Positions 1,531 to 30,341 are shown, numbered from the stretch's first letter. The stretch is DNA of 64,000 nucleotides from an uncultured Planctomycetia bacterium (GCA_964650515.1 CAZYUB010000009.1:25093-89092), one strand, 5' to 3'. Made by a program: numbers and translations. Notes: generated by a model not told the origin, from the letters alone.

Positions 1531-3236
1531 TCAATAGAAGCAGGCTAATAGGCGAATACCTCAGGTCGATCGGGATACTCGACGAATCGCAGCTGAAGAG
1601 CGTCCTGAAATCCCAGTTGGAATCCGGCAGCCGCCTTTCCGAAGTCCTGAGCGGCATTGGCTTCATGCAGACCGAACAGCTTAGGGACCTCATCGTCCAG
1701 GAATTCTCCCTGGTCCGCGCGCCTATCTTCGACATGGAGATACCGTTCGATATCCTCTCAAAGATAAAACCAGCGGTAGCATACCGCCATAAGATGATCC
1801 CGCTGAAATTCGAGAACGGTATTCTGACCGTAGCCACCGATGACCCGCTCAACCTTCTTGCCCAGGACAACCTCGAATCATTTACCGGCGTGAAGCTCGA
1901 TTTCATCCTGAGTTCGGAGACGAACGTCAATATAGCGCTCGAAAAACATTACGGCGGCAGCAAGAACATCCTCGACGCGGTCGCGCAGAAGCAGGACGAT
2001 TCCGCCTCGGTCTCCTTCAAGGGAGTGGCAGGCGAGGTCGTAAAGGAAGAGCAGAAGGACGAAGCGCCGATAATCAAGCTTGTTACCCAGATAATATCGG
2101 AAGCCGTCAAGAACCGCGCGTCGGATATCCACGTTGAGCCGCTCGAAGACAAGTTCCGCGTGAGGTACAGGATAGACGGTGTATTGCACGAAGTGCCGGG
2201 CCCGCCTAAACAGCTGCAGCCTTCGATACTCAGCCGCCTGAAGATCATGGCCGGCATGAACATCGCCGAGAAGAGGCTGCCGCAGGACGGAAGGATAAGG
2301 ATCCAGGGCATGGGCAAGGACCTCGACTTGCGCGTCTCGACGCTGCCGGCGCTGTATGGCGAGAGCATCGTCATGAGGATCCTCGATAAGTCGAGCTTCA
2401 TGCTCGGCCTCGCGGAGTTGGGTTTTCTCCATGAGGACGCCGACACATTCGAGAAGCTCATCCATCTCCCTTACGGGATGTTGCTTATCACCGGCCCAAC
2501 CGGAAGCGGCAAGACGACTACGCTCTATGCCGCGCTGAGTTATATTAATAAGCCGAACAAGAAACTCATCACAGTCGAGGACCCGGTCGAGTACCAGATA
2601 TCCGGCATCAACCAGGTCCATGTGCGGCCGTCGATCGGGCTCACTTTCGCTTCCGGCCTCAGGACGATGCTCAGGCAGGCGCCCGACGTCATAATGGTCG
2701 GTGAGATCCGTGACTTCGAGACCGGTTCCATCGCGATCCAGGCCGCCCTTACCGGCCATCTGCTCTTCTCCACCCTGCATACGAATGATGCTGCCGGCGC
2801 GTTCACGCGCCTTATAGATATGGGAGTCAAATCATACCTTGTCAGTTCCACGGTCCAGGCGGTCATGGCGCAAAGGCTCGTGCGAAAGATCTGCCAAAAC
2901 TGCAAGGAGCCGTATAAGCCGACGATCGAGGAATTGTATGTGCTCGGATATAAGCCGGGAGACCCGAAGGCGGAAGAGCTCCAACTGTCCAAGGGCAAAG
3001 GATGCAAGATGTGCAACTATACCGGATATAAGGGAAGGATAGGGATATTCGAGCTCCTCGTCAACAATGACGAGATACGCGAGATGGTCGTCAAGAGGCT
3101 CTCCTCATACGAAATACGCGACGCCGCTCGCAGGAACGGCATGAAGCTGTTAAGGGAAGACGGCCTCAACAAGGTCAGGGAAGGCATTACTACGATATCC
3201 GAGGTCGTGCGCATCACGCACGGTTACGAGGAATAG
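1527..3236 (+). CDS. gspE: Type II secretion/type IV pilus assembly ATPase (GspE/PilB family) with N-terminal GSPII_E_N domain, paralog 1
   Basis: 569 aa. Walker A GPTGSGKTTT, Asp box, His box LHTNDAAG, tetracysteine CQNC...CKMC zinc motif, N1 domain present. Confidence 0.9.
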   Translation: MINRSRLIGEYLRSIGILDESQLKSVLKSQLESGSRLSEVLSGIGFMQTEQLRDLIVQEFSLVRAPIFDMEIPFDILSKIKPAVAYRHKMIPLKFENGILTVATDDPLNLLAQDNLESFTGVKLDFILSSETNVNIALEKHYGGSKNILDAVAQKQDDSASVSFKGVAGEVVKEEQKDEAPIIKLVTQIISEAVKNRASDIHVEPLEDKFRVRYRIDGVLHEVPGPPKQLQPSILSRLKIMAGMNIAEKRLPQDGRIRIQGMGKDLDLRVSTLPALYGESIVMRILDKSSFMLGLAELGFLHEDADTFEKLIHLPYGMLLITGPTGSGKTTTLYAALSYINKPNKKLITVEDPVEYQISGINQVHVRPSIGLTFASGLRTMLRQAPDVIMVGEIRDFETGSIAIQAALTGHLLFSTLHTNDAAGAFTRLIDMGVKSYLVSSTVQAVMAQRLVRKICQNCKEPYKPTIEELYVLGYKPGDPKAEELQLSKGKGCKMCNYTGYKGRIGIFELLVNNDEIREMVVKRLSSYEIRDAARRNGMKLLREDGLNKVREGITTISEVVRITHGYEE

Positions 3237-3238
3237 GT

Positions 3239-4972
3239 ATGGCTACCGAAAAAGACCAGCCGAAGCAGGAAAAATACAAGAGGATAGGGCAGCTGCTGCT
3301 CGACAAGAAGATGATAAATGAGCACCAGCTCGAGCAGGCACTCGAAGAGCAGAAGCTTACCGGAAAGCTGCTCGGAAGGATCTTCGTCGACATGGGCGTC
3401 GTGAAGGAGGACGATATCCTGCAGTTGCTCGGCGCGAGGTCGGGCTTCTCGGTCATAAAGCTCAAGGACATGAAGATCCCGAGGGAGGTCATCGATAAGG
3501 TCCCGGCTTCCGTCGCGAAGATATACACCATAATGCCGATCTCGGTTGAAGGCAACCAGCTCTCTATCGCGATAGCCGATCCGCTCAACGTCGCCGCGTT
3601 CGACGACCTGAGGTTCACGCTCGGCATGAACATAAAAGGCGTCGTCGCCAGCGACGAAGAGATAAAAGAGCAGATACAGAGGTATTACGGTTCCGAGGGC
3701 GAGACGATACAGGACGTGCTCGGTGTCTTCGGTGAGAAGATGGAGCTTGTCCCGGTCGGCGAAGAGGTTAACGACATCGCGACACTTCAGGAACTCGCGT
3801 CGCGCGCGCCCGTCATAAAACTCCTGAACATGATACTGCTTCAGGGCGTCAAGGAGAAGGCATCCGACATCCATTTCGAGCCGTTCGAACAGGATTACCG
3901 CATAAGGTATAGGGTCGACGGAGTGCTTTACGAAGTCGCGCGCCCTCCTAAAAATTTGAGTTTAGGCCTCTCATCCAGGATAAAAGTCATGGCGAACCTC
4001 GATATAGCCGAAAGGCGCCTGCCGCAGGATGGCCGTATAATGGTCACGATAGAAGGCAAGAGCGTCGACCTGCGTATCTCGACGCTGCCGACGATATTCG
4101 GCGAAAGCGTCGTCATGAGGGTCCTCGACAGGACTACCGTCAGTTTGTCGATAGATGAGGTCGGCATGCTCGACGACACAAAAAAGAAGATTCGTTCGAT
4201 AATACAGAAGCCAAACGGCATTTTCCTGGCGACGGGGCCGACCGGCTGCGGCAAGACGACGACGCTCTACGGGTGCATGAAAGAGATAAACAAGATAGAA
4301 TATAAGGTTATCACTACAGAAGACCCCGTAGAGTACGACCTGAAGGGCGTCATTCAGGTGCCTATCAACGCGAAGATAGGCCTCACGTTCGCGTCTTCAC
4401 TGCGCCATATATTGAGGCAGGACCCGGATATAATCATGGTCGGTGAGATAAGGGACGCCGAGACCGCGCAGATCGCGATACAAGCGTCGCTGACGGGCCA
4501 TCTCGTATTTTCCACCCTGCACACGAACGACGCCGCGGGAACGATAACGAGGCTTGTCGACATGGGCGTGGAGCCGTTCCTCGTAACATCCACGCTTGAG
4601 GCGGTCCTCGCGCAGAGGCTTGTCAGGAAGATATGCGCGTTCTGCAAGGAAGAGTATACGCCCGAGCCGGAGATCATCGCGGACCTCGGCATCAAGCCCG
4701 AAGAGGTAAAGTCGTATAAATTTTATAAGGGGGCCGGATGTGTGAAGTGCAACAATTCGGGATACAAAGGGAGGACCGGCATATACGAGCTCCTGATATT
4801 GAACGAGAAGATCCGCCAGCTTGTCATAGAAAGGGCGCATACCGCCCTTATAAAGAATGCCGCCATAGAGAGCGGCATGAAGACCCTGCTGCAAGACGGG
4901 CTTGATAAGATCAACGCGGGGATCACTAGCGTCGAGGAGGTATTGAAGGAAGCCCAGACCTCGATATTGTAG
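3239..4972 (+). CDS. gspE: Second tandem GspE/PilB-family secretion ATPase, paralog 2 (full length, with N1 domain)
   Basis: 577 aa. GPTGCGKTTT Walker A, LHTNDAAG, CAFC...CVKC tetracysteine motif. ~45% identical to paralog 1 by eye. Confidence 0.9.
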   Translation: MATEKDQPKQEKYKRIGQLLLDKKMINEHQLEQALEEQKLTGKLLGRIFVDMGVVKEDDILQLLGARSGFSVIKLKDMKIPREVIDKVPASVAKIYTIMPISVEGNQLSIAIADPLNVAAFDDLRFTLGMNIKGVVASDEEIKEQIQRYYGSEGETIQDVLGVFGEKMELVPVGEEVNDIATLQELASRAPVIKLLNMILLQGVKEKASDIHFEPFEQDYRIRYRVDGVLYEVARPPKNLSLGLSSRIKVMANLDIAERRLPQDGRIMVTIEGKSVDLRISTLPTIFGESVVMRVLDRTTVSLSIDEVGMLDDTKKKIRSIIQKPNGIFLATGPTGCGKTTTLYGCMKEINKIEYKVITTEDPVEYDLKGVIQVPINAKIGLTFASSLRHILRQDPDIIMVGEIRDAETAQIAIQASLTGHLVFSTLHTNDAAGTITRLVDMGVEPFLVTSTLEAVLAQRLVRKICAFCKEEYTPEPEIIADLGIKPEEVKSYKFYKGAGCVKCNNSGYKGRTGIYELLILNEKIRQLVIERAHTALIKNAAIESGMKTLLQDGLDKINAGITSVEEVLKEAQTSIL

Positions 4973-5041: not shown

Positions 5042-6307
5042 ATGGCAATATTCAACTACGTCGCTATAGACAAGGACGGCAAGGAGACAAAAGGCAGGCT
5101 CGAGGTAGCCGGGAACCAGGAAGCTATGGACCAGATCCGGCAGAAGGGCCTATACCCTATTAGCATAACCGAGGAGAAGTCGAAGTCGGATATGCCCTCC
5201 TCGAGGGGAAGGGAGGGGTCGGCGGACGTGAAACCCGCAAGGTCCGGCATGACGATCTCATTCGGCAGGGTCAGCGCGAAGCAGGTGACGATATTCACAA
5301 GGCAGCTGGCAACGCTTATAGGGTCCGGCCTGCCGCTCGTCCGCGCGCTATATGTCCTTGAAAGGCAGGAAAAAGCCGGACTGTTGAAGGCGACGATACG
5401 CGGCCTCGCAGAGCAGGTAGAGGGAGGAAGCTCGTTCTCAGAAGCGCTTTCAAAGTTCCCGAGGGCGTTCGAGCCGTTGTATGTCAATACCGTGAAAGCG
5501 GGCGAAGCGGGCGGCGTCCTTGAGGTCGTATTGACGCGACTCGCTGAGTTCGCGGAGAAATCCCAGAGGTTGGAAGGCAGGATCAAATCCGCGATGATAT
5601 ACCCCGCGCTCGTTCTCACCATGGCTTTATCGGTCCTTGGCTTCCTTATAACGTTCATCGTCCCGAAGTTCCTGCAGATATTCAAGGAAATGAACGTGGA
5701 GTTGCCCGTTATGACAAAAGTGCTCCTCGTCGTCAGCGATTTCGCGAAGAGCAAATGGTATATAGGCCTCGCATTGATAGGATTGGGCATAATGCTCTTT
5801 AATATACTGTACAGGCTGCCCGCGACGAAACTTCTGATAGACAAGGCCAAGCTTGAGATACCCGTTATGGGCCAACTCGTAAGGAAGATAGCCATAGCGC
5901 GTTTCTCGAGGACCCTCGGCACGCTGCTCTCCAGCGGCGTCCCGATATTGCAATCGCTCATGGTCGCCAAGGATACGACAGGCAACGAAGCGATGGCGCG
6001 CTCGATCGTAGTTGTCCATGACGCGGTAAGGGAAGGCGAGACGGTCGCGAAGCCGCTGCTGAAGGCAGGGCTCTTCCCCGCGATGGCGGTAAATATGATC
6101 TCGGTAGGCGAGGAGACGGGCGCCCTGGACCAGATGCTCCTCAAAGTCGCAGACGTATATGATGAAGAGGTCGATGTCACCGTAACCGGCCTCATGTCCA
6201 TACTTGAACCGTTCTTGATCATCGGGCTGGGCCTCATAGTAGGTTTCATAGTCATCGCTATGTTCCTGCCGCTGTTCCAGCTCGTAACCGCGCTAGGAGG
6301 TGGTTAA
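5042..6307 (+). CDS. gspF: Type II secretion inner-membrane platform protein GspF/PilC
   Basis: 421 aa. Two T2SSF repeats (…LATLIGSGLPLVRAL…/…LGTLLSSGVPILQSL…) and three TM segments. Confidence 0.9.
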   Translation: MAIFNYVAIDKDGKETKGRLEVAGNQEAMDQIRQKGLYPISITEEKSKSDMPSSRGREGSADVKPARSGMTISFGRVSAKQVTIFTRQLATLIGSGLPLVRALYVLERQEKAGLLKATIRGLAEQVEGGSSFSEALSKFPRAFEPLYVNTVKAGEAGGVLEVVLTRLAEFAEKSQRLEGRIKSAMIYPALVLTMALSVLGFLITFIVPKFLQIFKEMNVELPVMTKVLLVVSDFAKSKWYIGLALIGLGIMLFNILYRLPATKLLIDKAKLEIPVMGQLVRKIAIARFSRTLGTLLSSGVPILQSLMVAKDTTGNEAMARSIVVVHDAVREGETVAKPLLKAGLFPAMAVNMISVGEETGALDQMLLKVADVYDEEVDVTVTGLMSILEPFLIIGLGLIVGFIVIAMFLPLFQLVTALGGG

Positions 6308-6308
6308 A

Positions 6309-6797
6309 ATGAGGAAGGGTAAAAAGGGATTTACGATAATAGAACTCATAGTCGTCATGACGATAATAATGATGCTCGCGGGGCTTGTCGCGGCGGCCGC
6401 GTCTACGGCGAGGCAGCGCGCGTTGATAGCGCGCACACGCGCAATGATAGCGGGCATCGAGACGGGGATAGGCATGTTCCAGTCGGACCTGGGAGGCTAT
6501 CCGTCCGACTCTGCTAATACAGACTTGTATAATTGCCTCATGACAAGCACCAGCGGTAGCTATGAGATCGGGACCCGCACTTTAGCGGTCTCTACCAACA
6601 CGAACTGGGCAGGGCCGTACATGACATTCAAGGATAACGACCTTACGGGCGGCAATAGAGTAATAGACGCGTGGGGGACGGTATTTTTATATACAAATCC
6701 CGACACGTCGCACGGCGGCTCGTATGTCGACATAAGGTCTGCCGGGCCCGACAGGACTTACGGCAACACCGACGACATAACGAACTGGACGAGATAA
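6309..6797 (+). CDS. gspG: T2SS major pseudopilin GspG
   Basis: Prepilin signal KKG|FTIIELIVV with Glu+5. C-terminal DAWG…Y…DIRSAGPDRTYGNTDDITNW matches the GspG Ca-site region (DPWG…DIFSLGPDG…DDI.NW). RBS AGGAGG 8 nt before the ATG at 6309; the upstream GTG at 6300 is rejected. Confidence 0.85.
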   Translation: MRKGKKGFTIIELIVVMTIIMMLAGLVAAAASTARQRALIARTRAMIAGIETGIGMFQSDLGGYPSDSANTDLYNCLMTSTSGSYEIGTRTLAVSTNTNWAGPYMTFKDNDLTGGNRVIDAWGTVFLYTNPDTSHGGSYVDIRSAGPDRTYGNTDDITNWTR

Positions 6798-6821
6798 TAA
6801 GGTCTTAGCAGGGGGGATGAG

Positions 6822-7175
6822 ATGAAAAGGAGCGGTTTCACCCTCATTGAGATCGTCATCGCGCTGGCCATCCTGGCTGTCGGCCTCGTGGGGATCCTTT
6901 CACTCTTTCCCATCGGTTTTGATTCCGCGAGAAGGTCCGTCAGCGCGACGCAGGCGACCATATTCGCGAACGAACATCTCGACGAGCTGAAGAACAGCGG
7001 CTTTCCCGCGCTCGGCTCCACCTCCGGCACATTCGCAGACCCCGCATATTCATGGACCCAGACGATATCGACGACCACGGTAAACGACCTCAGGCAGGTC
7101 ATCTGCACCGTAAGCTGGGGCCAGGGCAACAGGACATTCCAGAGGGCATTCACTACAAATGTCGCTAACAGGTAG
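6822..7175 (+). CDS. Minor pseudopilin, GspI-like size (117 aa)
   Basis: Class III signal peptide MKRSG|FTLIEIVIAL with Glu+5; small size typical of GspI. Confidence 0.65.
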   Translation: MKRSGFTLIEIVIALAILAVGLVGILSLFPIGFDSARRSVSATQATIFANEHLDELKNSGFPALGSTSGTFADPAYSWTQTISTTTVNDLRQVICTVSWGQGNRTFQRAFTTNVANR

Positions 7176-7914
7176 AAGGCGCATAACCGGCAGGGCCGGG
7201 CTCACTCTCGTCGAGATACTCGTCGTCGCGGTGATATTCACTATCCTGGTCCTCGCGCTTTTTACCGTCTTCAGGGGCGCGCTTGATTCATGGCGCAAGT
7301 CCGAGACGCTCCTCGACATGTACCAGAACACGAGGTTTACTTTCGAGCTTATGCGCAAGGAGATACCGGCATCGGTGCTCTACCAGGGGTCCAACAACAC
7401 CGCCTACTGGACGAAGTTCGAGGGCAACGACAGCGGGAGCGCCGCGATAATAAAGACAAATTCGGTAGGCGACGAACTTTTCTTCGTCGCGCCGGTCGCC
7501 GGCAACCCCGGGGACCAGGACCTCTGCGAGGTCGGGTATTGGTTGCGCAACGATAACTGCCTCATGAGACATTTCGAATATTACGACGGCAGCACGGTGC
7601 CGGTGGCCTACGATTTCGCCGTCAATAACGCCGGCACGACGTCGGCCGATGTAATCGCGCGCAACGTATCGGCGATCAGTTTTGTTTACTATTACAGGAA
7701 CGCCGTGGGCGCGGTGCCGTCGGCAACGGCAACGAGCTGGGACTCAAGCACCGACACGCTGACCGGCGGTAACCAGAATATTGATTCCTCCGGCAACGCG
7801 CTCATACCGGACGGTTTGCCCGAAGCGGTAGAGGTCTCCCTGACCGTCCAGAGCAGGGACGGCCTTCAGCAGAAGACGTTCACGGATTTCATCCTAATTC
7901 CGGGTGCAAGATGA
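7159..7914 (+). CDS. Minor pseudopilin, GspJ/GspH-like (251 aa)
   Basis: Prepilin-type N-terminus …GRAG|LTLVEILVVAVIFTIL with Glu+5, preceded by a basic leader. Confidence 0.6.
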   Translation: MSLTGRRRITGRAGLTLVEILVVAVIFTILVLALFTVFRGALDSWRKSETLLDMYQNTRFTFELMRKEIPASVLYQGSNNTAYWTKFEGNDSGSAAIIKTNSVGDELFFVAPVAGNPGDQDLCEVGYWLRNDNCLMRHFEYYDGSTVPVAYDFAVNNAGTTSADVIARNVSAISFVYYYRNAVGAVPSATATSWDSSTDTLTGGNQNIDSSGNALIPDGLPEAVEVSLTVQSRDGLQQKTFTDFILIPGAR

Positions 7915-15619: not shown

Positions 15620-18220
15620 ATGAACAAGAGAAGAAAGAAGGGCGTCGCGCTTATCATTACGGTAGGGATCCTCGCGCTGCTGGCCATGATCGCTACCTCT
15701 TTCGCCTACAACATGATGTTCGACCTAAAGGGCGCCGCAAATTATGTATTGAAGATGAAGGCGAAGAACGCGGCTGAGGCGGGAATAAATATGTCTATCG
15801 CCTACCTGCGGCAGCTTGCCGCGAGCGACTTCAACGCGGTGCCTACAAGCGCGTGCGATTGGGCATATACAAGCGCCACGCAGCCGTCGTTTGACGGGCG
15901 TGACGGGGCGGCAGGCAATTCAACGAGCGGACTGCTCGGAGATGTCGGCAGGGGCCATATCGCCGTATGCTCATTGAGGGTGACCGACACAAATTCGCAG
16001 ATAAACATCAACGACACAAACCCGAACCTGAATGTCATCCTGGGAAACCTCGGGACCATATTGTCCATACCGGGATGGGCCCAGGCAAATGCGGACAGCA
16101 TGATATCCGGGAGGCCTGCTGGCGGTTATGCGACCAAAGAAGGGATAGTCGAATTTATGCCGGGTGCCGACCTGACGGCAAAGAGGGTTAATTACGCCCT
16201 TATAAGGGATTTCGTGACCGCCAACAGCTATATCGACCAGTACAGCGAGGACGCGACGGCGCCGATGCCTACCAGCAACAACTACCAAAGCAAGTCGCCG
16301 GTAAACATCAATACCGCAAGGAGAGAGGTGTTGCGCGCGGTCCTGCGCCCTCTTGTCAGCACTGACGCGAATGCGTCGCAGGTAGCCGGCGCGATCATTA
16401 CGGCGAGGACTATGGTATCGCCGTTCCGGAGCTGGAACGGGGCCGCGTCGGCGGGCGGCTTTAATTCCTTTATCGACAATATCAACCCTACAATATTGAC
16501 CAATCCCCAGAAAGACGCCATCAAGAACAACTTCAATCCCAATAAGGTCAAGCAGGGCGCGTATACTACGGATTTCTGTTTCCATCCGGGAGGTTTCTAC
16601 GAGATCATCTCGACCGGCACAGTCGGAATAGATAATAATTCGGACGGGGCGGTCGAGGATGCAAAAGCAAGGCAGGAGCTTACCGCTATCGCAAGGATAT
16701 ACAGTATCCTTAATTATACGGCAAAAGAGCAGTTCCGCGGCGAGGACGCGAACTACAACGGCATCCTGGACGCGGGCGAGGACGCGAATGGGAATGGTGC
16801 GATCGATAGCCCTACGTTCCAGAACGTGACATGGATGAACTCATGCCCGGTGGTCTCGACGGAAGGCGACGGCGTGAAATACCCTGCGGTTGGAGGCTAC
16901 ACGACCGTGCCTAATTCGCTGAAGCTAGGAGTGTGGGATAATTTCGACGAGGATAATTATGACACGAACGGCGACGGGAAGGCCGAGACGGGTTTCAGCC
17001 TGTGGGCATGGTCGAATGAATCCGGCGCCGGGTCTAAGATGGAATTCAAGGAGTGCGATGGTGACGGAGATTGGGAGATGTATGGAGAAGGCGTCTATTT
17101 TGGTTCTCCGTGGATATTCCCGAAGTTCGTGTTAAGGTCTGATTGGGTGTTCGGGAATAGGTTCTCTTTGAGGGGTTTTACGTGCCCGATACCAGCTGGT
17201 GACGGCACCGAGGATGGCGGGCGTATACAATTTACCAATTCAAACGGCAGCACAACATATGGGCAGTTTATGCTGCGGAGATGGGGATTCGACTATTGGT
17301 CCGGCGTCAGAGATATAACAAGGCCCCCGACCGTGGCGCAGCCCATAGGTACAGTGAAATGGGATGACCAGGCGACGGCAGATTCCCACGCAAAAAAGGG
17401 CAAGGATTTTTCAGATACAACCGTATATTTGAGATTAAACGGCAGCAATCACCGCGTATACAGGTTGGGAGACCTGTACGGATATACGGACCAATTTACG
17501 GACCATTACAATTTTTGTACCGATCCCTCATCAGTCCCCGTCACATTTTACGAAGAGGGTATCGATAGGTATCACGGTGTCATGCCGGAGATATATGCCC
17601 TCAAACTTGCGGTAAGCCCAGACCTATCGCCGAACTATAGGGCATGGATTGCAGTAGGCAATATTAATATTGCCGAGCTTTATGATTATAATGCAGGGAC
17701 GTATTCCGGGTTTACTCCATGTGTTGCGCCGTCCTCGAATTTCATGGCCGTACCGCTGCATGCAAGCTCTCAACCTTCTTATGACAGGTACGGATGCGAT
17801 AAGAGCCCGTGTTCGAGTAACACGTGGAGTATCAATACGTGGTATTTGACGCTGTTTTTGAATCACAGCGATGGTTTCTGGGAAGAAATAAGGGTCCTGT
17901 CAAATACCGGTTTTTATCAATCACCTGTTTTTGCGGGATCCTTATTTAATGGCGGGAATCCTGTAGTATGGGGCACCGGTTCATGGACACTGAGTATCCC
18001 CTCGACAGCCGACCCGGCAAAAGAAACATGCATCGTGCAGTTCAACACCGGAAGCGGATTGACTGCGGCGACGTTTAACGGCGCTATAGGCGGGGTCTCA
18101 AATTCAATTATATACAGGATTAATTTGGCATCTACCGATACCGATTGCAGTGAGACGCCGGTCTTTGAGGATTTGACCATAACTTACTTGCCGAGGGCAA
18201 GTGTTGTCTACCAGAGGTGA
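15620..18220 (+). CDS. Giant GspK-like pseudopilin paralog 3 (~866 aa) with tandem EF-hand-like loops
   Basis: N-terminus KKG|VALIITVGILALLAMIATSFA. ~75% protein identity to paralog 2 over the first ~150 aa. DANYNGILDAGE-DANGNGAID loops. Motifs SLKLGVWDNFDEDNYD and WMNSCP. The ATG at 15620 has a GAGG RBS; the upstream ATG at 15530 overlaps the -10 box and is rejected. Confidence 0.7.
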   Translation: MNKRRKKGVALIITVGILALLAMIATSFAYNMMFDLKGAANYVLKMKAKNAAEAGINMSIAYLRQLAASDFNAVPTSACDWAYTSATQPSFDGRDGAAGNSTSGLLGDVGRGHIAVCSLRVTDTNSQININDTNPNLNVILGNLGTILSIPGWAQANADSMISGRPAGGYATKEGIVEFMPGADLTAKRVNYALIRDFVTANSYIDQYSEDATAPMPTSNNYQSKSPVNINTARREVLRAVLRPLVSTDANASQVAGAIITARTMVSPFRSWNGAASAGGFNSFIDNINPTILTNPQKDAIKNNFNPNKVKQGAYTTDFCFHPGGFYEIISTGTVGIDNNSDGAVEDAKARQELTAIARIYSILNYTAKEQFRGEDANYNGILDAGEDANGNGAIDSPTFQNVTWMNSCPVVSTEGDGVKYPAVGGYTTVPNSLKLGVWDNFDEDNYDTNGDGKAETGFSLWAWSNESGAGSKMEFKECDGDGDWEMYGEGVYFGSPWIFPKFVLRSDWVFGNRFSLRGFTCPIPAGDGTEDGGRIQFTNSNGSTTYGQFMLRRWGFDYWSGVRDITRPPTVAQPIGTVKWDDQATADSHAKKGKDFSDTTVYLRLNGSNHRVYRLGDLYGYTDQFTDHYNFCTDPSSVPVTFYEEGIDRYHGVMPEIYALKLAVSPDLSPNYRAWIAVGNINIAELYDYNAGTYSGFTPCVAPSSNFMAVPLHASSQPSYDRYGCDKSPCSSNTWSINTWYLTLFLNHSDGFWEEIRVLSNTGFYQSPVFAGSLFNGGNPVVWGTGSWTLSIPSTADPAKETCIVQFNTGSGLTAATFNGAIGGVSNSIIYRINLASTDTDCSETPVFEDLTITYLPRASVVYQR

Positions 18221-19425
18221 AGTGGGCCATGAGTAAGGGTATTATATATATTGCAATCATATTGTTGGCTACGATTTTTTCTGCTATAAGGTTTGCGCAT
18301 GCCGATGACATTATCCTGAAGGAAAGCGGTAGGGTAATTGTCGGGAAGGTCCTTGAAGAGAAGGACGGCATGCTTACGATTAAGCTGTCAAAAGGCGGTT
18401 CTTGTATAATGCCGAGAGATTGGGTAAATAGGATAATAAAGAAGGACCTATCCGACGAAGAACTTTTTACCAAGGGTGATATATATCAGCAAAAATTGAA
18501 GGCCATAAATCCTAAATCAGCAGAAGACCATCTCGCACTTGCCGATTGGTGTTTTAATAACGGTACCCCGGAGAACGGTATGCTCTTTGCGGCGGAGTCA
18601 CATCTAAATATTGCTATGCAACTGGACCCAGGTTCTGCCAAACGCGCTCCTGAAGCACTACTTAGGGTAAGGGAGAAGACCGCCGAAAAGGTTTTCTCAA
18701 AAGCTGAGCTGGAATACGAAAACGGGGAGTATATAAGATCGGAGCAGGAAGCTTTGTCTATAATCTTCGCCTACGGTGAAACGAAATACGCGTCAAAAGC
18801 CAAAGGCCTGCTGACAAAAATATGGGGAAAAGACAGGGTTTTGGTTCTTTTGGAGCCAAAAGAGGATCCATTACCCGGTGTTGCTTATTCAAGGGAAGAC
18901 CTCGAGTCGGTTCTTTATAGTCTTAGTAATGACGAGCAAAAAGAATTGTATTTTTTAAAGTGTATAGATAAAGCTAAGGATTATGTGCAGAGGAGCCAGG
19001 AAGTCCCGGCTAACAGAAAGGCTAATTATTACAGGATCGCCATAGACTGCTACAGGAACGCGTTGTCGAGTGAAAAGTCGGAAGTCAGGGCTGTTGCTGA
19101 TTCAAATATTCAGGATCTTCTCAGGAAATATTTTGCGGACCTTTCCGCGCCTTACAATGATTACAGCTTTTCGTTGATTTCAAATCTTATGTTGATGATC
19201 AATGACGAGAAACTCATCCAGGACATAAGCGCGCAATACTCGAAGATGGGCGACGACCTGCTTAAGAAAGCCAGGCGGCTCAAGCAACCTGATAAGGGCA
19301 AAGAGGCCGCCGCAGCATATTTCAGTTATTCTATAGCGAATAATTTCTCCAAAGACGGCAAGATAAGGGAGAATGCGATAGAAAACATGATCGAATGCCA
19401 GCGCCTGGAGAGAGCACGCAAGTAG
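18217..19425 (+). CDS. Secreted partner protein A' (paralog of 14273-15466; identical last 12 aa IECQRLERARK), AT-rich codon usage
   Basis: 402 aa with a signal/TM N-terminus. ~35-40% identical to A overall, but the last ~40 nt and the downstream promoter are ~95% identical at DNA level. Confidence 0.55.
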   Translation: MKWAMSKGIIYIAIILLATIFSAIRFAHADDIILKESGRVIVGKVLEEKDGMLTIKLSKGGSCIMPRDWVNRIIKKDLSDEELFTKGDIYQQKLKAINPKSAEDHLALADWCFNNGTPENGMLFAAESHLNIAMQLDPGSAKRAPEALLRVREKTAEKVFSKAELEYENGEYIRSEQEALSIIFAYGETKYASKAKGLLTKIWGKDRVLVLLEPKEDPLPGVAYSREDLESVLYSLSNDEQKELYFLKCIDKAKDYVQRSQEVPANRKANYYRIAIDCYRNALSSEKSEVRAVADSNIQDLLRKYFADLSAPYNDYSFSLISNLMLMINDEKLIQDISAQYSKMGDDLLKKARRLKQPDKGKEAAAAYFSYSIANNFSKDGKIRENAIENMIECQRLERARK

Positions 19426-19501: not shown

Positions 19502-21100
19502 ATGGGAAAACGTGCTCTTGGAATCGATATAGGCGCAGGCTCAGTCAAGCTCGTAGAGCTTGAAAAGACATCCGAAGGCGTGCAACTCCTCCGGGCAAAG
19601 TTTTTTGACCTCACACAGCACCCAGACCAGGAGAAACGCGAGGCCCTCGTAAGGGAGGGGCTCGAGGGGCTCCTCAAGACAGAAAAGATAAGAAGCGGCA
19701 ATACCGCAATATCCCTCTCAGGCCAGTCGGTCTTCATAAGGTTCCTGAAACTCCCCAAGATACAAAAAGGCAAAGTAGACAAGATAATAAAGTACGAGGC
19801 CCAGCAGCAGGTCCCGTTCCCCCTCGATAAGATAACCTGGGACCACCAGATATTCCACAGCGGCGCCGGCCCGGAAGAGGACGTGCTGTTTGTCGCCGCC
19901 AAGAAGGAGCTCGTCGAGGCCACGCTGCTGAATTTCTCAAGGACAGGCCTTGATGTAGAATCCGTCGACGTAAGCCCTCTCTCGCTGCTCAACGCGATCA
20001 CCTATAATGAGCCGCTCGCGAAAGGCGTAATAATAGATATAGGCGCGAAGGCGACAAACCTGATAGTCCTCGACGCGAAGGGCTTCTGGGTACGCTCGGT
20101 GCTCATCGCCGGCGATGAGATGACGCACGCGATAGCTTCTAAGATGAACATCCCGTTCGACAAGGCTGAAGAGCTCAAGCGCAAGGAGGGCATGGTCGTC
20201 CCGTCGGACAGTTTGGTGCCCTCGAACATAAGCTCCACGGGCCAGGAACTCGTAAGTATCCTCAATACCGTCGTATCCGACATGGTCTCGTCTATAATAC
20301 AATCCCTCGAATTCTATAAGTCGAAGCACGGCAGGGATATGGTCTTCGGCGAGGTCATACTTTCCGGCGGCGGCTCCAAGCTGAAGGGAATAGAGGATTA
20401 CCTCGCGAAAGGCCTCGGGATGCAGATAAGGCGCGCCAACCTCGGCCAGAAGATAAAATGCCCTTCGAACCTCAGGGTGGACATAGATTTCCAGTCGAGG
20501 TTCGGCGCCGCGATAGGCCTCGGGCTGCGCCTGCTGCAGAGATGCCCGACGAATATCGACCTGCTTCCGGCCGAAAGGAAAGAGGACAGGGATTTCAGGA
20601 AGGAAAGGATTTGGATAATCGCCGCGGGGGTCATGCTGTCGCTTATACCTTTCACTATAGCCATGAACATATGGTTCCAGTCCGGCGCTTTAAGGAAACA
20701 GATATTATTCCTCGATGATATATTGGCCCAGTATGACGACGTGAAAGCGAAGATAGCGACGCTTAAGGATGACATCAAGAAGGGCGAGCAGAGGATAAAA
20801 CCGCTTGAGAACGTTGCCGTCAGGAGGTCCCTGCTGCTGGAGGCGCTGCTTGAGGTTGAGAAGCTGCTGCCGAAAGAGACGTGGCTTACCTCGTTAAGCG
20901 AAGAGAAGGATTGGATCTCCATAGAAGGCAGGACCTCTGAGAACCTCCTTACGATAACGGAGTTCAAGAACAAGCTCTCGGCATCCCCGTTATTCGAATC
21001 GGTAGAGATAATCTACGCGAGCCTCCCGAAGGATTCAGAGGAAGGCATGGGCCAGTTGAGGGACTTTTCTATTAAGTTCAAGCTGAAGGCAGGGAAATAA
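19502..21100 (+). CDS. GspL-like assembly protein = PilM (actin-like ATPase fold) fused to PilN (TM + periplasmic)
   Basis: N-terminal GIDIGAGSVKLVEL and …ILSGGGSKLKGIEDYL… are PilM motifs. After a TM segment (IWIIAAGVMLSLIPFTIAM) there is a coiled-coil/PilN-like periplasmic domain. Confidence 0.8.
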   Translation: MGKRALGIDIGAGSVKLVELEKTSEGVQLLRAKFFDLTQHPDQEKREALVREGLEGLLKTEKIRSGNTAISLSGQSVFIRFLKLPKIQKGKVDKIIKYEAQQQVPFPLDKITWDHQIFHSGAGPEEDVLFVAAKKELVEATLLNFSRTGLDVESVDVSPLSLLNAITYNEPLAKGVIIDIGAKATNLIVLDAKGFWVRSVLIAGDEMTHAIASKMNIPFDKAEELKRKEGMVVPSDSLVPSNISSTGQELVSILNTVVSDMVSSIIQSLEFYKSKHGRDMVFGEVILSGGGSKLKGIEDYLAKGLGMQIRRANLGQKIKCPSNLRVDIDFQSRFGAAIGLGLRLLQRCPTNIDLLPAERKEDRDFRKERIWIIAAGVMLSLIPFTIAMNIWFQSGALRKQILFLDDILAQYDDVKAKIATLKDDIKKGEQRIKPLENVAVRRSLLLEALLEVEKLLPKETWLTSLSEEKDWISIEGRTSENLLTITEFKNKLSASPLFESVEIIYASLPKDSEEGMGQLRDFSIKFKLKAGK

Positions 21101-21102
21101 AT

Positions 21103-21867
21103 ATGGCAAAGGGCATTAAGCCGCATGTGATGACGAAGCTTGTGCTGGGGCTCGTATTCCTGGGGTCCCTTTGCGTCGCCATATTTGTCGGCTACGACAG
21201 GTCTTCCTTAGAGAAGTCCATACAGGACAAGACAGGAGAGCTCGAAAGCTATGAGGACCAGGGGCTTTCCGTCCTTAACAGGGAGCGGCTGAAGCTTGAA
21301 AAACAGCTTAAATCCCTGAAAGACGTGAATGACCAGCTGAATACCGGCCTTTTCACCAGCCCGAAGGCCAGGATGCCTAAGGAAGCCGGCGACGCCCTGA
21401 AGTTCAAGGAAGAGCTTTACAGGGTCCAGAACAAGATAAAGGAAGAAGGGGTGCCGATAGATTTCCAGTTCCCGTTCTGGCTCGGTTTCGAAAGATACGA
21501 GCATGATATTCCCGTTTCTGCCGACCTTCCCGTCAGGGCCAAGCAGCTCGAGATAATAAAAGAGATCATGGACCTGATGCTTCAGGCGAAGGTCCCCGAG
21601 GTATCGTCCGTAGAATTCCTCGAGTCGAAGAACATTACCTATGACGGCGGCAAGGAGCCGATGTTCAGGGAGTTCCCTGTGAGGATATCGTTTAAGTGCA
21701 AGAACGATAACCTTCTCGGTTTCCTGTATAAGGTCTATGTTTCCGGGATACCTTTCAGGGTAGACGTACTCAAGATCAAGGTACTTAACGAAGAGACCGG
21801 CGAAAAGGGCGAACTTAAAGTGGAAGCCGTGATAGTGGCTGCCATACAGCAGGCGGAAAAGATATGA
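21103..21867 (+). CDS. PilO/GspM-like bitopic inner-membrane assembly protein
   Basis: Single N-terminal TM (LVLGLVFLGSLCVAIFVGY), coiled coil, ~250 aa, positioned after the PilMN fusion. Confidence 0.55.
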   Translation: MAKGIKPHVMTKLVLGLVFLGSLCVAIFVGYDRSSLEKSIQDKTGELESYEDQGLSVLNRERLKLEKQLKSLKDVNDQLNTGLFTSPKARMPKEAGDALKFKEELYRVQNKIKEEGVPIDFQFPFWLGFERYEHDIPVSADLPVRAKQLEIIKEIMDLMLQAKVPEVSSVEFLESKNITYDGGKEPMFREFPVRISFKCKNDNLLGFLYKVYVSGIPFRVDVLKIKVLNEETGEKGELKVEAVIVAAIQQAEKI

Positions 21868-22535
21868 AAGGCATATATAAGATCGCCGCGATAGCGCTGT
21901 TCGTATTATGGTTCATATTGCTATGGTCGGCGCCGTCTTTATTCACGCCGAAGGATTTCTCCGTCCCGACGGGCGAAGATAATATCGTTAAGCCAGACGA
22001 TACAGCAGTTGACGCGTCTGACGTTTATTCAGCCCTTATAGAAAGCGTTAAATCGCCGTTTGCCGCTGCGAGATACCAGCAGCTCCTCGACAGGAACCTG
22101 TTCATGAGGCCGGAAGCGCCCCCGGTCGTTTTCACGCCGGACAAGCTTAAGGTCGTGTCTATCGGGGCCACGAACCTGCCCTTCATGTATACCGGTTTCA
22201 TACAGAAGCAGGACGGCACGATGATAGGCCAGATTAACTGGTCGGGGAAGACATATTTCGCTAAGAAAGGCGAAAAATTCAAGGATTATAAGGTTATCGA
22301 GATAAATTCGAAACAGATAAGGGCCGAGAACAAGGACGGGCAGCTTACAATGGAGTTCAAGAAGCCCGTAAAGAGCAAGGAACTGATCGGAAAGCTCTAC
22401 AGCTCTATGGACGATAAGACCTTTGAAGTGAAAAAGGGAGATGAGATAAACGGTTATAAAGTTCTTGACATTAAGGCCGATAGTGTGATACTATACGGCC
22501 AGGATCAAGAGTGGGTCATTAAAAAGGGGAGATGA
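21864..22535 (+). CDS. PilP/GspC-like protein (TM anchor + two beta-sandwich HR-like modules)
   Basis: N-terminal TM; …KLKVVSIGATNLP…GQINWSGKTYFAKKGEKFKDYKVIEINSKQIRAENKDGQLTMEF resembles the PilP/GspC HR fold; the position in the operon fits. Confidence 0.45.
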   Translation: MKGIYKIAAIALFVLWFILLWSAPSLFTPKDFSVPTGEDNIVKPDDTAVDASDVYSALIESVKSPFAAARYQQLLDRNLFMRPEAPPVVFTPDKLKVVSIGATNLPFMYTGFIQKQDGTMIGQINWSGKTYFAKKGEKFKDYKVIEINSKQIRAENKDGQLTMEFKKPVKSKELIGKLYSSMDDKTFEVKKGDEINGYKVLDIKADSVILYGQDQEWVIKKGR

Positions 22536-22540
22536 TATAA

Positions 22541-23659
22541 ATGGATATTACCAATGGGGTTAAAAGAACGGTTCTGCCGTTTTTTTGTATCTTTCTGACT
22601 TTCAATTTATTCTTTATTATCTCATTGTATTATTTTGCCGGAGGCGAAGCCCACGCTGCCACGGGGAGTGGTTATTCTAATGATTCCCTGGAGGCAAAGA
22701 TTATCGCCGAAGACCTGGCAAAGCAGAAAAAAGTAGAAAAAAAATCCCTCGTTTCAGACCTCTTTAAGCAGGCAAAGGCCTCATATGACGCGAAAGATTA
22801 CGAGACCTCCCAGAAGATATTCGAAAGAGTCGTCCAATTAGACCCGAAGAACAAGCAGGCCTCCCATTATATAGAATTATGCAAGGAAGGCATGGCTAAG
22901 GATGTCCCCGCGTCTATATCGGGCACCCTTATGAAGAGGGGTAAAGCGAATTACGCGAACAAGCAGTATGCGGCCGCGATAGCGGACTTTGAGACGGCGT
23001 TGGCAGCGAACCCGAGCGACTCGGAGGCCAGGTTGTGGCTTGAGAAGGCGCGCAGGGGGGAGGAGCTGTACTCAAGGGAGAAATCCACAAAAGAAGAACG
23101 TAAAGATATAGTAAACGACAGGAAGGTCCTGAAGGAAGAGAAGGACACTGCGGAGCAGGCGGCCCTGCGCGATGTCGACAAGGGTTGGCTGCCCCCGGCC
23201 GCTCCGGTTAAGGAAGAGTTACAGGTCGAGGAGGTCATATCGGAATCCGAGAGGGCCGAACAGGAAGCCAAGAAGGCGCTTATCGACAAGATGCGCAGCG
23301 TAATGGTCCCCGCGATCTCGGTCACTGACGCGGATATCCAGGACCTGATACGCCAGCTCATGGAGATGACCGGCGTCACGATAGTCGTGGATGAAAGGGA
23401 GCTTGCGGCCCTTACGAAAGACGCTCCCATAAAGATATCATTGAGCACCGCTACCCCGATGCCGTTGCTGGACGTGCTCGATATAGCGTTCAAGACGACG
23501 CAGTTGGGTTATAAGGTAGAGCCGAATTACGTATACGTAACGAGCAAGCGCATGAGGGACATTGAAGACCTCGTGACAAGGACATACAAGCTTAAATACC
23601 CGGAGCGCAAGACGAGGGAAGTCAAACTGAAGGAATTTGAGGCCAAAGAGGCGGAATAA
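22541..23659 (+). CDS. Membrane-anchored TPR-repeat protein with C-terminal secretin N0/STN-like domain
   Basis: N-terminal TM, TPR-like helical repeats, and a charged coiled-coil linker. C-terminal …VPAISVTDADIQDLIRQLMEMTGVTIVVDE…PLLDVLDIAFKTTQLGYKVEPNYVYVTS matches the N0/STN fold pattern found at PilQ/GspD N-termini. Confidence 0.5.
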   Translation: MDITNGVKRTVLPFFCIFLTFNLFFIISLYYFAGGEAHAATGSGYSNDSLEAKIIAEDLAKQKKVEKKSLVSDLFKQAKASYDAKDYETSQKIFERVVQLDPKNKQASHYIELCKEGMAKDVPASISGTLMKRGKANYANKQYAAAIADFETALAANPSDSEARLWLEKARRGEELYSREKSTKEERKDIVNDRKVLKEEKDTAEQAALRDVDKGWLPPAAPVKEELQVEEVISESERAEQEAKKALIDKMRSVMVPAISVTDADIQDLIRQLMEMTGVTIVVDERELAALTKDAPIKISLSTATPMPLLDVLDIAFKTTQLGYKVEPNYVYVTSKRMRDIEDLVTRTYKLKYPERKTREVKLKEFEAKEAE

Positions 23660-23661
23660 AC

Positions 23662-24777
23662 ATGGGAAAAAATCTCTGTCTTTTCGCGCTGGCGTCCCTT
23701 CTCATACTCCCCCGCATGGTGTCCGCAGAGGACATCAATGTCGCGAATTACCTGAAGGACAGCCTTCCTCCGCAGGAAGGCAGGAAGATAACGTATAACC
23801 AGGCATCGAAGCTCCTGACCGTCACAGACACCAAGTCGAACCATAACCTGATAAAAAACCTTATCAAGCAGTTCGAGATAGGCCCGAAACAGGTCATGAT
23901 CGAGACGAGGTTCGTGGAAGTCGACGTTACCGACCTCATGGAAATCGGTATTGAATGGGACTTCTACAAGCAGGGGCATCCGAGCGGCAAGGGTTTCAGG
24001 GGCATGCGCTGGGGTGATGCTACTTATGGCGCCGATTACCAGGGTGTCCACTGGAATAATGACCTTGAATCCACGTTCCCTATAACCGGGAATTTTGCCG
24101 GCCAGTTAGCGCTCTATAAAGTGCTTGAATCAGGCGATTATATAGTATCGAACCTCAGGGCCTTGGCGGAACAGGGTAAAGTGAACCTGCTGTCGTCCCC
24201 GAAGATCACGACGGTAGCCGGCCAGATGGCGAATATCCAGGTAGTCAGGACCCAGCCGTATGTTTCGGACTTTACGCTTGAGAATATCGGTACGGCGGAA
24301 GACCCTATATGGAGCTATAAGTTGACCCTCGCGGAGAAGCCGATAGGCATATTCCTCGAGGCCACTCCTTACGTTACCGAGGGTTCGAACACGATAACGC
24401 TTGACCTCCATCCTGAAGTCAGCATTATGCGCGACCAGGTAAGGATCTCGACACTTACGACAAGCGGCGAGACCGGCGAGCTCGGCAACGTTACGGCTGA
24501 CGATTCGGTGCCGCTCATTCCGGAAGACCTCGGATGGCCCGTGGTGGACGTCAGGACTACGCAGACCAGCGTCGTCGTCGACAGCGGACAGACGATAGTC
24601 CTCGGCGGTATGATCAAGGATGAAGAGCAGGTCATCAAGAGGAAGGTCCCGGTATTGGGGGATATACCGCTCCTGGGAAAGGCCTTCCAGTATGATTACA
24701 AAGAACAGCGCAAGAAGAACCTCCTTATATTCATCACGGCGAGTATCATCAATGCCAGAGGGGAGGTAATAAGGTGA
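23662..24777 (+). CDS. gspD: Short secretin 1 (signal peptide + one N-ring domain + secretin domain; lacks N0)
   Basis: …VMIETRFVEVDVTDL… (Secretin_N); …LRALAEQGKVNLLSSPKITTVAGQMANIQVV…TSVVVDSGQTIVLGGMI…KVPVLGDIPLLGKAF…KNLLIFITASII is the secretin C-domain signature. Only 371 aa. Confidence 0.85.
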   Translation: MGKNLCLFALASLLILPRMVSAEDINVANYLKDSLPPQEGRKITYNQASKLLTVTDTKSNHNLIKNLIKQFEIGPKQVMIETRFVEVDVTDLMEIGIEWDFYKQGHPSGKGFRGMRWGDATYGADYQGVHWNNDLESTFPITGNFAGQLALYKVLESGDYIVSNLRALAEQGKVNLLSSPKITTVAGQMANIQVVRTQPYVSDFTLENIGTAEDPIWSYKLTLAEKPIGIFLEATPYVTEGSNTITLDLHPEVSIMRDQVRISTLTTSGETGELGNVTADDSVPLIPEDLGWPVVDVRTTQTSVVVDSGQTIVLGGMIKDEEQVIKRKVPVLGDIPLLGKAFQYDYKEQRKKNLLIFITASIINARGEVIR

Positions 24778-25895
24778 AAAATATGATAAGAGCGTTCTTA
24801 TATACACTGGTAATATCTGTGATAGCCGTGACGTCAGCTTGTATCCCGTTGTGCTATGCGCAGGAAGTAGGCGAGGCGGCTGCCGAGACATCCGTGTCGG
24901 CTGCGGAAGCATCTACGATAAAGGAATACCTGCAGCAGGCGCTTCCTGATAATCCCGAGAGGAAGATAGTCCTGGACGAGGTAACGGGCGTGCTTACGGT
25001 TACGGATACGCCGAGCAACCAGGCGCTGGCAAAGGACCTCATAATGCTTTGGGACACGGGCCCGAGCCAGGTAAAGATCCAGGCGAGATTTGTCGAGATA
25101 GAGATGACGGACGTCGAGGAACTCGGCGTTGAGTGGTGGTGGGCAAGGGAGGACAGGCATTCGGAAAAGAACGGCCGTTTTAGCAATATGGGCGTGAACA
25201 TGTTCTCACCGTCGATAAGTGAAAATGCCGACGATGCCGCGATATTCGGTATGGCCAACGAAACATCAGGCCTTGGCCTTAAGCTGGGCAGGTTCACCCA
25301 GGCCGGCAGCGTCATACAGGTATACTTGAAGGCGCTGCAGGAAGAGGGGAAGGCGAACCTGTTGTCGTCGCCTACGGTAACGACCCTTTCAGGGCAGATG
25401 GCGAACATACAGCTGGCAAATATAGTCCCCTACGCGTCGGATTTCACGAGGACGAATATAGGCAGCCCGGAGTTCCCGGTAATGGTCGAGGTCTATAAGG
25501 TGGCCGAGAAGGTCACCGGGATAATGCTCGAGGTCACTCCTACGGTCGCCGGCGACAGCCAGGTGGTCACGATGGATATACATCCCGAGGTAAGCGTTCT
25601 TGTGGACCAGCTTCCGATAACGGCTTCTACCGAGTTCCCGGACGGCCTAGGATACCCGGTCATAGACACGAGGACGGCGCAGACATCGGTAGTAATAAAG
25701 AGCGGCGAGACGGTCGTGGTCGGAGGCCTTATCAGGGAAGACGAGAATGTGACGAAGAAGAAGGTCCCGTTCCTCGGCGATGTCCCGCTGGTCGGCAACC
25801 TTTTCAAGACGCACCATACGAACAGCGTAAAGAAGAATCTTGTGATATTCCTCACGGCGACGGTACTTAACTCAAGAGGAGAGCCGGTGCTATGA
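24774..25895 (+). CDS. gspD: Short secretin 2 (tandem paralog; 373 aa)
   Basis: …VKIQARFVEIEMTDV…; …LKALQEEGKANLLSSPTVTTLSGQMANIQL…TSVVIKSGETVVVGGLI…KVPFLGDVPLVGNLF…KNLVIFLTATVL. Start overlaps the stop of secretin 1 by 4 nt. Confidence 0.85.
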   Translation: MKNMIRAFLYTLVISVIAVTSACIPLCYAQEVGEAAAETSVSAAEASTIKEYLQQALPDNPERKIVLDEVTGVLTVTDTPSNQALAKDLIMLWDTGPSQVKIQARFVEIEMTDVEELGVEWWWAREDRHSEKNGRFSNMGVNMFSPSISENADDAAIFGMANETSGLGLKLGRFTQAGSVIQVYLKALQEEGKANLLSSPTVTTLSGQMANIQLANIVPYASDFTRTNIGSPEFPVMVEVYKVAEKVTGIMLEVTPTVAGDSQVVTMDIHPEVSVLVDQLPITASTEFPDGLGYPVIDTRTAQTSVVIKSGETVVVGGLIREDENVTKKKVPFLGDVPLVGNLFKTHHTNSVKKNLVIFLTATVLNSRGEPVL

Positions 25896-26215
25896 AACGC
25901 AAGCTTATAGCCATGTCGGTGGTATTGGCCGCGGCTGTTGCCGCTTCGACGGTATTCGCGCAGGTCATAACGAAAACAAAATCCTCGGCCGGCAAACAGA
26001 AGGACATTGTACTTACGACGGCTGACATGAAGGACTCCTATAAGGTCGTCGGGATCGTGTCGGCCCGCGGTGGAGAAGTAAATCTGGACGGTTTGAATGC
26101 AAAATTGAAGGATGCGGCCAGGGACCTGGGAGCCGATTGCGTCATAGGCATCAATTACTTCAACTATAGCGGCTACGTCTATGCTTATGGCACGGCAATA
26201 AAGCTCAAGGAATAG
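25892..26215 (+). CDS. Small secreted protein (107 aa), weak UPF0145/YbjQ-like similarity; last gene of the secretion operon
   Basis: Signal peptide MKRKLIAMSVVLAAAVAASTVFAQ. …LGADCVIGINYFNYSGYVYAYGTAIKL loosely resembles the YbjQ family (…GANAVIGVDIDYE…GTAVKV). Confidence 0.35.
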   Translation: MKRKLIAMSVVLAAAVAASTVFAQVITKTKSSAGKQKDIVLTTADMKDSYKVVGIVSARGGEVNLDGLNAKLKDAARDLGADCVIGINYFNYSGYVYAYGTAIKLKE

Positions 26216-28982: not shown

Positions 28983-28983
28983 T

Positions 28984-30336: not shown

Positions 30337-30341
30337 AGCAG

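Follow-up and report, generated by a model that had tools for sequence, protein, structure and literature searches.

How can a secretin whose outer-membrane pore and periplasmic N0 domain would be expected on one polypeptide be encoded by three adjacent genes, and what would hold such a pore together? The question is raised by a 64,000-nucleotide stretch of DNA deposited as that of an uncultured Planctomycetia bacterium (GCA_964650515.1, CAZYUB010000009.1:25093-89092; hereafter the window), at positions 22541 to 25895 of which an earlier note, made from the sequence alone, had proposed a split secretin. GspD of the type II secretion system (T2SS) carries N0-N1-N2-N3, and PilQ of the type IVa pilus (T4aP) AMIN-N0-N1, together with the secretin domain on one chain, and the N0 domain of these proteins binds GspC or PilP. 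The solved secretins matched in the present analysis are single-protein rings with the periplasmic N domains on the pore chain. The system encoded in the window has in common with GspD and PilQ the secretin domain, a preceding ring-building N domain and an N0 domain for the periplasmic entrance; unlike in GspD and PilQ, however, its N0 domain is on another protein, and a single N domain is left on each secretin, without its first strand.

The locus thus holds a type IV filament secretin that is cut within a domain and whose pore subunit is duplicated, and the same is true of every related Omnitrophota locus examined. The arrangement appears to be new, as no account of it was found in searches of the literature on Omnitrophota secretins and on hetero-oligomeric, tandem or split secretins.

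Domain content of the three proteins

The three genes lie on the plus strand at exactly the positions given in the earlier note: 22541-23659 for a tetratricopeptide repeat (TPR) protein of 372 residues, hereafter TPR-N0, 23662-24777 for secretin A (371 residues) and 24774-25895 for secretin B (373 residues). From its hydrophobic N-terminal segment, TPR-N0 continues through TPR helices and a long helix to an N0 domain and a tail containing Secretin_N strand 1. Secretin A comprises a signal peptide, a Secretin_N domain devoid of strand 1 (about 23725-23916) and the secretin domain (24160-24750), whereas secretin B has a variable linker between its signal peptide and its Secretin_N domain (24897-25070), which also lacks strand 1 and is followed by the secretin domain (25332-25868). 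The genes are tightly coupled: TAA, 2 nucleotides and ATG make up the junction between the TPR-N0 and secretin A genes, and the two secretin genes are joined by a GTGA overlap. Both secretins start with typical signal peptides (MGKNLCLFALASLLILPRMVSA followed by EDIN in A, MKNMIRAFLYTLVISVIAVTSACIPLCYA followed by QEV in B), a Shine-Dalgarno-like sequence stands in front of each secretin gene, and all reading frames are intact. Because each secretin has a signal peptide of its own, the separation into three genes is real and not due to a frameshift. Over 349 residues, secretins A and B share 42% identity (E = 8e-94), close to the approximately 40% previously judged by eye, and they are set apart by an insertion, about 18 residues long, ahead of the LGWPV motif.

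The profile searches suggested in the earlier note gave strong matches to Secretin, partial matches to Secretin_N and, for the window's TPR-N0, a sub-threshold match to STN. Pfam Secretin (PF00263) matches secretin A with E = 2.5e-37 (128.5 bits) and secretin B with E = 3.1e-42 (144.5 bits), against a cut-off of 27.5 bits, and the only other Pfam match in either protein is a single partial Secretin_N (PF03958), which begins at position 9 of the profile in A and at position 7 in B. The PDB matches of secretin B cover GspD and PilQ from N3 onward. In an AlphaFold2 (AF2) model of a chimera, the N domain of secretin A is an alpha-beta-beta-alpha unit with a predicted local distance difference test score (pLDDT) of 86-90, without strand 1, and all Foldseek matches of this model are secretins, headed by GspD and PilQ (E = 2.8e-14). 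Past the signal peptide, all 58 A and B sequences compared start at helix 1 (tIkeYLeqaLP), preceded in B by a non-conserved linker. The short secretins therefore have no cryptic N0, for which the AF2 model also leaves no room, as their mature chains begin at helix 1. The earlier count of one N-ring domain in each secretin is therefore generous, strand 1 being missing from both.

The N0 domain is found on TPR-N0 instead, at 23303..23545 (residues 255-335), where the AF2 model (mean pLDDT 75 for the whole protein) has a beta-alpha-beta-alpha-beta-alpha-beta-beta order at a pLDDT of about 76-79. Taken alone, the window protein remains below threshold in this region, both for STN (PF07660; E = 0.0029, residues 308-336, 17.8 bits against a gathering score of 28.4) and for GspD_N0 (PF21305; E = 0.0038, residues 261-286, 17.5 bits against 27). 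Across the family, STN is matched in 16 of 17 members (best E = 1.6e-6) and GspD_N0 in 13 of 17. A profile of the C-terminal 133 residues found GspD N0 chains and nothing else in the PDB (E = 4e-4), and among the top 50 Foldseek matches of the AF2 model a single one is not a TPR protein, namely, N0 of Neisseria PilQ (4ar0; E = 5.6e-3, TM 0.49). Collectively, the family profiles, the PDB chains and the fold match uphold the N0/STN-like nature originally assigned to this domain.

Two other properties ascribed to TPR-N0 fared less well. An inner-membrane anchor is doubtful: the window protein has a long N-terminal hydrophobic segment (about 22 residues), yet across the family this region resembles a Sec signal peptide, with a conserved x-Y-A motif at its end, and the fused relatives described below carry ordinary signal peptides. 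The TPR region (22682..23008, residues 48-156), predicted by AF2 as helices over the same residues (pLDDT 74-92), matches Pfam TPR_2 with E = 3.4e-10, with Pfam TPR matches located at residues 74-167, and had been likened to pilotins of the PilF/PilW type. TPR pilotins of T4aP are outer-membrane lipoproteins made of TPRs only. TPR-N0 is similar to PilF, PilW and Tgl in being a TPR protein that would act with a secretin; unlike them, it has an N0 domain and a Secretin_N strand, and no lipobox follows its hydrophobic segment. PilF and PilW models are absent from its NCBIfam matches at E<=0.1, and, apart from the PilQ N0, the top 50 Foldseek matches are generic TPR proteins. We therefore rejected a PilF/PilW pilotin identity. 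The TPR region corresponds to the TPR region built into secretins of the Amuc_1098 type.

Where is the missing strand? Past N0, the TPR-N0 chain runs through a short variable linker into DLVTRTYKLKY (residues 343-353; 23567..23599, plus strand), which we identify as the orphan Secretin_N strand 1, and then into a second conserved element, PERKTREVKLKE (residues 354-365; 23600..23635, plus strand), which includes EVKLKEFE. Expressed as the mean frequency of the commonest residue, conservation is 0.84 in strand 1, making it the most conserved segment of the protein, compared with 0.77 in N0, 0.72 in the second tail element and 0.58 in the TPR region. LVTRTYKLKY aligns with MxTRxYxL of the fused relatives, and the second element with a G..x..F element of the same proteins. 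In fused proteins that are free of a linker, such as P0187 (MQTRTYELPAGATHIVETLEASLP), MxTRxYxL lies 4-6 residues before Secretin_N helix 1, whereas others have a variable loop of low complexity in between, up to about 70 residues long.

Splicing the strand onto the secretins restores the profile match. The N domain of secretin A alone scores 30.4 bits against Secretin_N and covers profile positions 14-69; with IEDLVTRTYKLKY placed in front, the score rises to 38.6 bits and the coverage to 1-69. For secretin B, the corresponding values are 35.4 bits (9-69) alone and 50.3 bits (1-69) with IEDLVTRTYKLKY. Ten shuffled versions of the strand added at most 4.0 bits (<=4.0) and never reached profile position 1, whereas in two further loci, with TPR-N0 proteins about 35% identical to that of the window, the gains were 5.3 to 7.5 bits with full 1-69 coverage. 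The second tail element was also considered as the missing strand and rejected, as it added nothing to the Secretin_N score (30.8 bits, 13-69, when joined to secretin A). The beta-alpha-beta-beta-alpha unit of Secretin_N is hence incomplete on either secretin chain, and the full 1-69 match is obtained only after splicing of the TPR-N0 tail. These profile matches place the cut inside the Secretin_N domain, between strand 1 and helix 1, which is a new point.

Ancestry and conservation of the split

A search of 1.84 billion representative proteins with a profile of N0 plus tail matched 378. All 10 proteins of 700-900 residues that were checked contain Secretin, 9 of the 10 contain TPR, and most contain STN/N0 or Secretin_N, the order in these unsplit relatives being TPR, STN/N0, Secretin_N and Secretin on one chain. 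That relatives hold on a single chain of 700-900 residues what the window distributes over three genes bears out the idea of a split secretin with N0 on a separate TPR protein. One fused homologue of 821 residues lies in an Akkermansia-like operon with Amuc_1102, PilM and Amuc_1100, and Amuc_1098 of Akkermansia has been described as an outer-membrane protein of 907 residues that contains TPR and secretin regions (PMC4960237).

The comparison with the Amuc_1098 family (NF042912), which includes 'PilQ' of Akkermansia muciniphila, is the closest. Its members have the same order of signal peptide, TPR, N0/STN, Secretin_N and secretin, and the operon partners are also common to the window, with an Amuc_1101-type PilM and an Amuc_1100-type protein immediately upstream. 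The difference is that Amuc_1098 is one polypeptide of 805-907 residues, whereas in the window there are three genes, with the cut inside Secretin_N and the secretin half duplicated. The 805-position NCBIfam profile is covered in pieces, by the TPR protein over positions 158-370 and by the secretins up to position 803, so that the three proteins match different parts of it and score 48.8, 143.8 and 121.6 bits against a cut-off of 750. Taken together with the architecture of the unsplit relatives, this piecewise match indicates that the Omnitrophota arrangement is a fission of this secretin type. Both secretins remain below the equivalog cut-offs of the canonical families, with 155.8 and 175 bits against 351 for GspD (TIGR02517), where only profile positions 299-595 are covered, and 138.5 and 167.2 bits against 284 for PilQ (TIGR02515), whose N0 is matched in neither.

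How widespread is the split? TPR-N0 has 76 homologues (32-99% identity), 69 of which are 345-378 residues long, the remainder being fragments of 206-254 residues and one protein of 463 residues. All 31 related loci that include downstream DNA, the scope of the locus counts given here, have the order PilMN, Amuc_1100-like protein, PilP-position protein, TPR-N0, secretin, secretin and small protein, and a more distant locus with a 485-residue TPR variant has the identical gene order. The earlier note had proposed looking for the same split in related genomes, and it is present in every related locus examined. Homologues with a named source belong to Candidatus Omnitrophota (Omnitrophica), the nearest related locus is on an Omnitrophota metagenome-assembled genome (JAGONY010000005.1), and the 28 species-representative genomes with the locus are mostly Omnitrophota, the others being labelled 'uncultured Planctomycetia'. 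We conclude that the organism belongs to Candidatus Omnitrophota, an uncultured phylum of bacteria. Seven records labelled 'uncultured Planctomycetia' (L010, L014, L019, L024, L025, L031 and L033) have the Omnitrophota-type operon, with N0-region identities of 52-91%, and the labels on these seven bins are probably taxonomic misassignments.

In a neighbour-joining tree of 58 secretins, the first-position and second-position proteins form clean clades with matching internal branching, so the duplication is older than the separation of these lineages; both copies persist in every one of the 31 loci. When fused proteins are included, A and B are each other's closest relatives and together form the sister group of the fused proteins, a grouping that fits fission first and duplication of the truncated half afterwards. 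We propose this order tentatively, the tree being a neighbour-joining one with a midpoint root.

Duplicated secretins also occur in another lineage, in which locus L041 (2174-6863) has tandem unsplit TPR-STN-Secretin_N-Secretin genes for proteins of 814 and 739 residues. These paralogues (P0187 and an 814-residue protein of the length of P0188) are, like A and B, two side-by-side secretins of the same broad family; unlike A and B, each keeps its own TPR and N0 and is unsplit. In a rough tree, the L041 duplication appears to be independent of the one in Omnitrophota, and paired paralogous secretins may therefore recur in the broader family. A further variation is seen in P0089, P0090, P0095 and P0097 (1381-1677 residues), where the N0-plus-tail profile matched in 6-8 separate stretches; these appear to be long proteins of tandem N0/STN-like domains.

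Proposed reassembly of the pore

We consider it probable, albeit not strongly so, that the three proteins form the outer-membrane end of the Omnitrophota type IV filament machine, a hybrid between T2SS and type IV pilus, which would have been split by gene fission and would be rebuilt by strand donation into a mixed ring. Presumably, an ancestral fused gene broke in a pre-existing loop between Secretin_N strand 1 and helix 1, after which the downstream half acquired a signal peptide and, later, a second copy. A periplasmic TPR-N0 protein would thus end with the orphan strand 1, and secretins A and B would begin at helix 1. Insertion of the tail strand into the incomplete secretin N domain would rebuild the N0-N-secretin stack non-covalently and tether the N0 ring under the pore. 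N0, in turn, may dock onto the PilP-position protein and thereby onto the PilMN/PilO platform, as can be surmised from the GspC-GspD and PilP-PilQ pairs. Both secretins would be needed, most likely within one mixed ring. Completion of an unfinished beta-sheet domain by a strand from another polypeptide is known from the donor-strand complementation of chaperone-usher pili. The parallel is one of analogy only, the fold and the system being unrelated, and for the window such complementation is a proposal.

Several points weigh against this interpretation. A single donor strand faces two acceptor secretins, and the stoichiometry is not accounted for. Physical contact between any of the three proteins is something that we infer from sequence, and the PilP assignment is based on gene position and E-values of about 1e-3. 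The trees are midpoint-rooted neighbour-joining trees without support values. Finally, the AF2 chimera referred to above, a virtual fusion of TPR-N0 with mature secretin A run with an unpaired block alignment of 69 sequences, gave the tail as low-confidence helices (pLDDT 38-53) and did not lay it as a strand against the N domain. When shorter pieces were aligned in blocks with MAFFT, N0 was misaligned (22-29% identity), whereas the full-length virtual fusion was aligned correctly. The confidence of the modelled tail is too low to refute strand donation, and the model lends it no support.

The main alternative is that each secretin makes a homo-oligomeric pore of its own and that the two pores do different work, for instance, pilus exit in one case and protein secretion or DNA uptake in the other, which we regard as a serious possibility, even though we lean against it. 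The solved secretins among the PDB matches are all homo-oligomers, the window contains two ATPases and a duplicated GspK-like module, and the insertion before LGWPV distinguishes A from B. However, the duplication of the GspK-like module is absent from other loci, where both secretins are nevertheless present, and A and B are always adjacent and start/stop coupled, are accompanied by one TPR-N0 gene and one small downstream gene, and have both been retained in all 31 loci. Such consistent retention of both copies next to single TPR-N0 and small genes argues against redundancy, and a hetero-oligomeric or double-ring pore of A and B is plausible on these grounds. The stricter version of our interpretation, an obligate three-component pore in which A and B mix in one ring, each N domain is one strand short, and a separate TPR-N0 donates that strand so that the N0 ring is clipped on non-covalently, is put forward tentatively and is rather doubtful as it stands.

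Unlikely, in our estimate, is the second alternative, in which TPR-N0 is a free periplasmic adaptor or assembly factor, similar to a pilotin or to GspC/PilP, that engages the secretin transiently, its tail being another binding motif or a relic. In its favour, TPR modules often are chaperones or assembly factors, the tail failed to dock onto secretin A in the AF2 fusion, and the secretin N domain was predicted confidently in the absence of strand 1. On the other hand, the tail holds the most conserved segment of TPR-N0 and matches exactly the part of the Secretin_N profile that the secretins lack, which shuffled versions fail to do; in the fused relatives, the strand is on the same chain as the N domain; and the protein shows neither a lipobox nor a PilF/PilW match. 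An assembly or sequencing artefact, or the recent pseudogenisation of a single secretin gene, can be dismissed with near certainty, nothing having been found in its favour, and a frameshift or pseudogene origin was rejected, as many samples, assembled independently, have these three genes, with identities as low as about 32-35%, with intact frames and a signal peptide and Shine-Dalgarno-like sequence for each secretin.

The operon and the significance of the split

The three secretin genes are at the end of a plus-strand operon of approximately 25 kb, which is of the T2SS/type IV pilus-like kind known from Akkermansia Amuc_1098-1102; the features described below are on the same strand unless they belong to the downstream housekeeping region. 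The operon starts with two tandem GspE/PilB-type ATPases (1527..4972; 569 and 577 residues; Pfam T2SSE E = 2.5e-141 and 2.2e-142) that have N-terminal MshEN domains (E = 1.9e-14 and 1.5e-20), a domain type known to bind cyclic di-GMP. A small GGDEF protein is encoded farther downstream (30917-31435), and the orthologous gene in related loci has a Pfam GGDEF match. The ATPases are followed by the platform protein GspF/PilC (5042-6307; Pfam T2SSF E = 1.1e-58), a major pseudopilin of the GspG type (6300-6797; Pfam T2SSG E = 1.6e-08), and minor pseudopilins resembling GspI (6822-7175; weak T2SSI match) and GspJ (7159-7914; weak T2SSJ match), with N_methyl motifs among the pseudopilins of the 5042..7914 segment.

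An accessory block (7911..19425; Pfam PA14, Beta_helix, PilX_N and T2SSK) comes next. Its first part (7911-11766) places a PA14-domain protein of 986 residues and a right-handed beta-helix protein of 331 residues among the pseudopilin genes; related loci contain this pair as well, and the two proteins may be cargo or tip adhesins. The second part (11769-19425) is a tandem-duplicated two-gene module, in which a giant GspK/PilX-like minor pseudopilin (831 and 896 residues; NCBIfam T2SS_GspK E = 1.7e-12) is paired with a protein of 397 or 402 residues that has an LA_0442/PTPDL-like N-terminus. A related Omnitrophota locus has the GspK-like module in a single copy.

Immediately before the secretin genes are those of the presumed PilMN/PilO platform and of the PilP-position protein. 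The first encodes a 532-residue PilM-PilN fusion of the Amuc_1101 family (19502..21100; PilM_2 E = 7.3e-33, PilN E = 1.2e-09, Amuc_1101_fam E = 6.8e-81), and the second, in the PilO position, an Amuc_1100-like protein of 254 residues (21103..21867; NCBIfam Amuc_1100_fam E = 1e-09), whose orthologues are annotated as PF28028 Amuc_1100. The PilP-position protein (21864..22535; 223 residues), the presumed partner of N0, has weak matches to pilP_fam (E = 0.0011) and GspC_delta (E = 0.0098), both limited to about 30 residues, and a PDB sequence search with it gave no match. Its gene is kept at the same place in all loci.

On the other side, the secretin B gene shares an ATGA overlap with the last gene of the secretin module, which encodes a small secreted protein of 107 residues (25892..26215). 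This protein has weak YbjQ/DUF1471 matches only in Pfam and no meaningful match in a PDB sequence search. Counterparts of 91-147 residues follow secretin B in 31 of 31 loci, and the protein may serve the secretins as an accessory or pilotin-like factor. Next to it lies polA, and the remainder of the window consists of housekeeping genes. The succession of polA, coaE and rho after the secretin module (26316-32762) is repeated in 4 of 4 related loci (L001, L003, L005 and L038), in some loci with a glycogen synthase-type glycosyltransferase and a GGDEF gene in between, and this synteny extends to lineages with no more than about 35% identity between their TPR-N0 proteins.

A role of type IV filament systems in the host-attached or predatory lifestyle proposed for the very small Omnitrophota cells has been suggested in work that does not mention secretins (bioRxiv 10.64898/2026.06.07.730766). 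For the annotation of Omnitrophota genomes, our results suggest a simple rule, namely, that where a 'TPR repeat protein' is annotated ahead of two 'GspD' genes, it should be counted as a component of the secretin. A lineage that keeps a cut within a domain, together with two paralogous pore subunits, amounts to a natural experiment, which bears on what links the N0 ring to the pore, on whether this ring can be a separate and possibly exchangeable part, and on whether secretin rings can be mixed. The proposed assembly, if true, would be without precedent both as a hetero-oligomeric secretin and as one with a detachable N0 ring, open to exchange or regulation.

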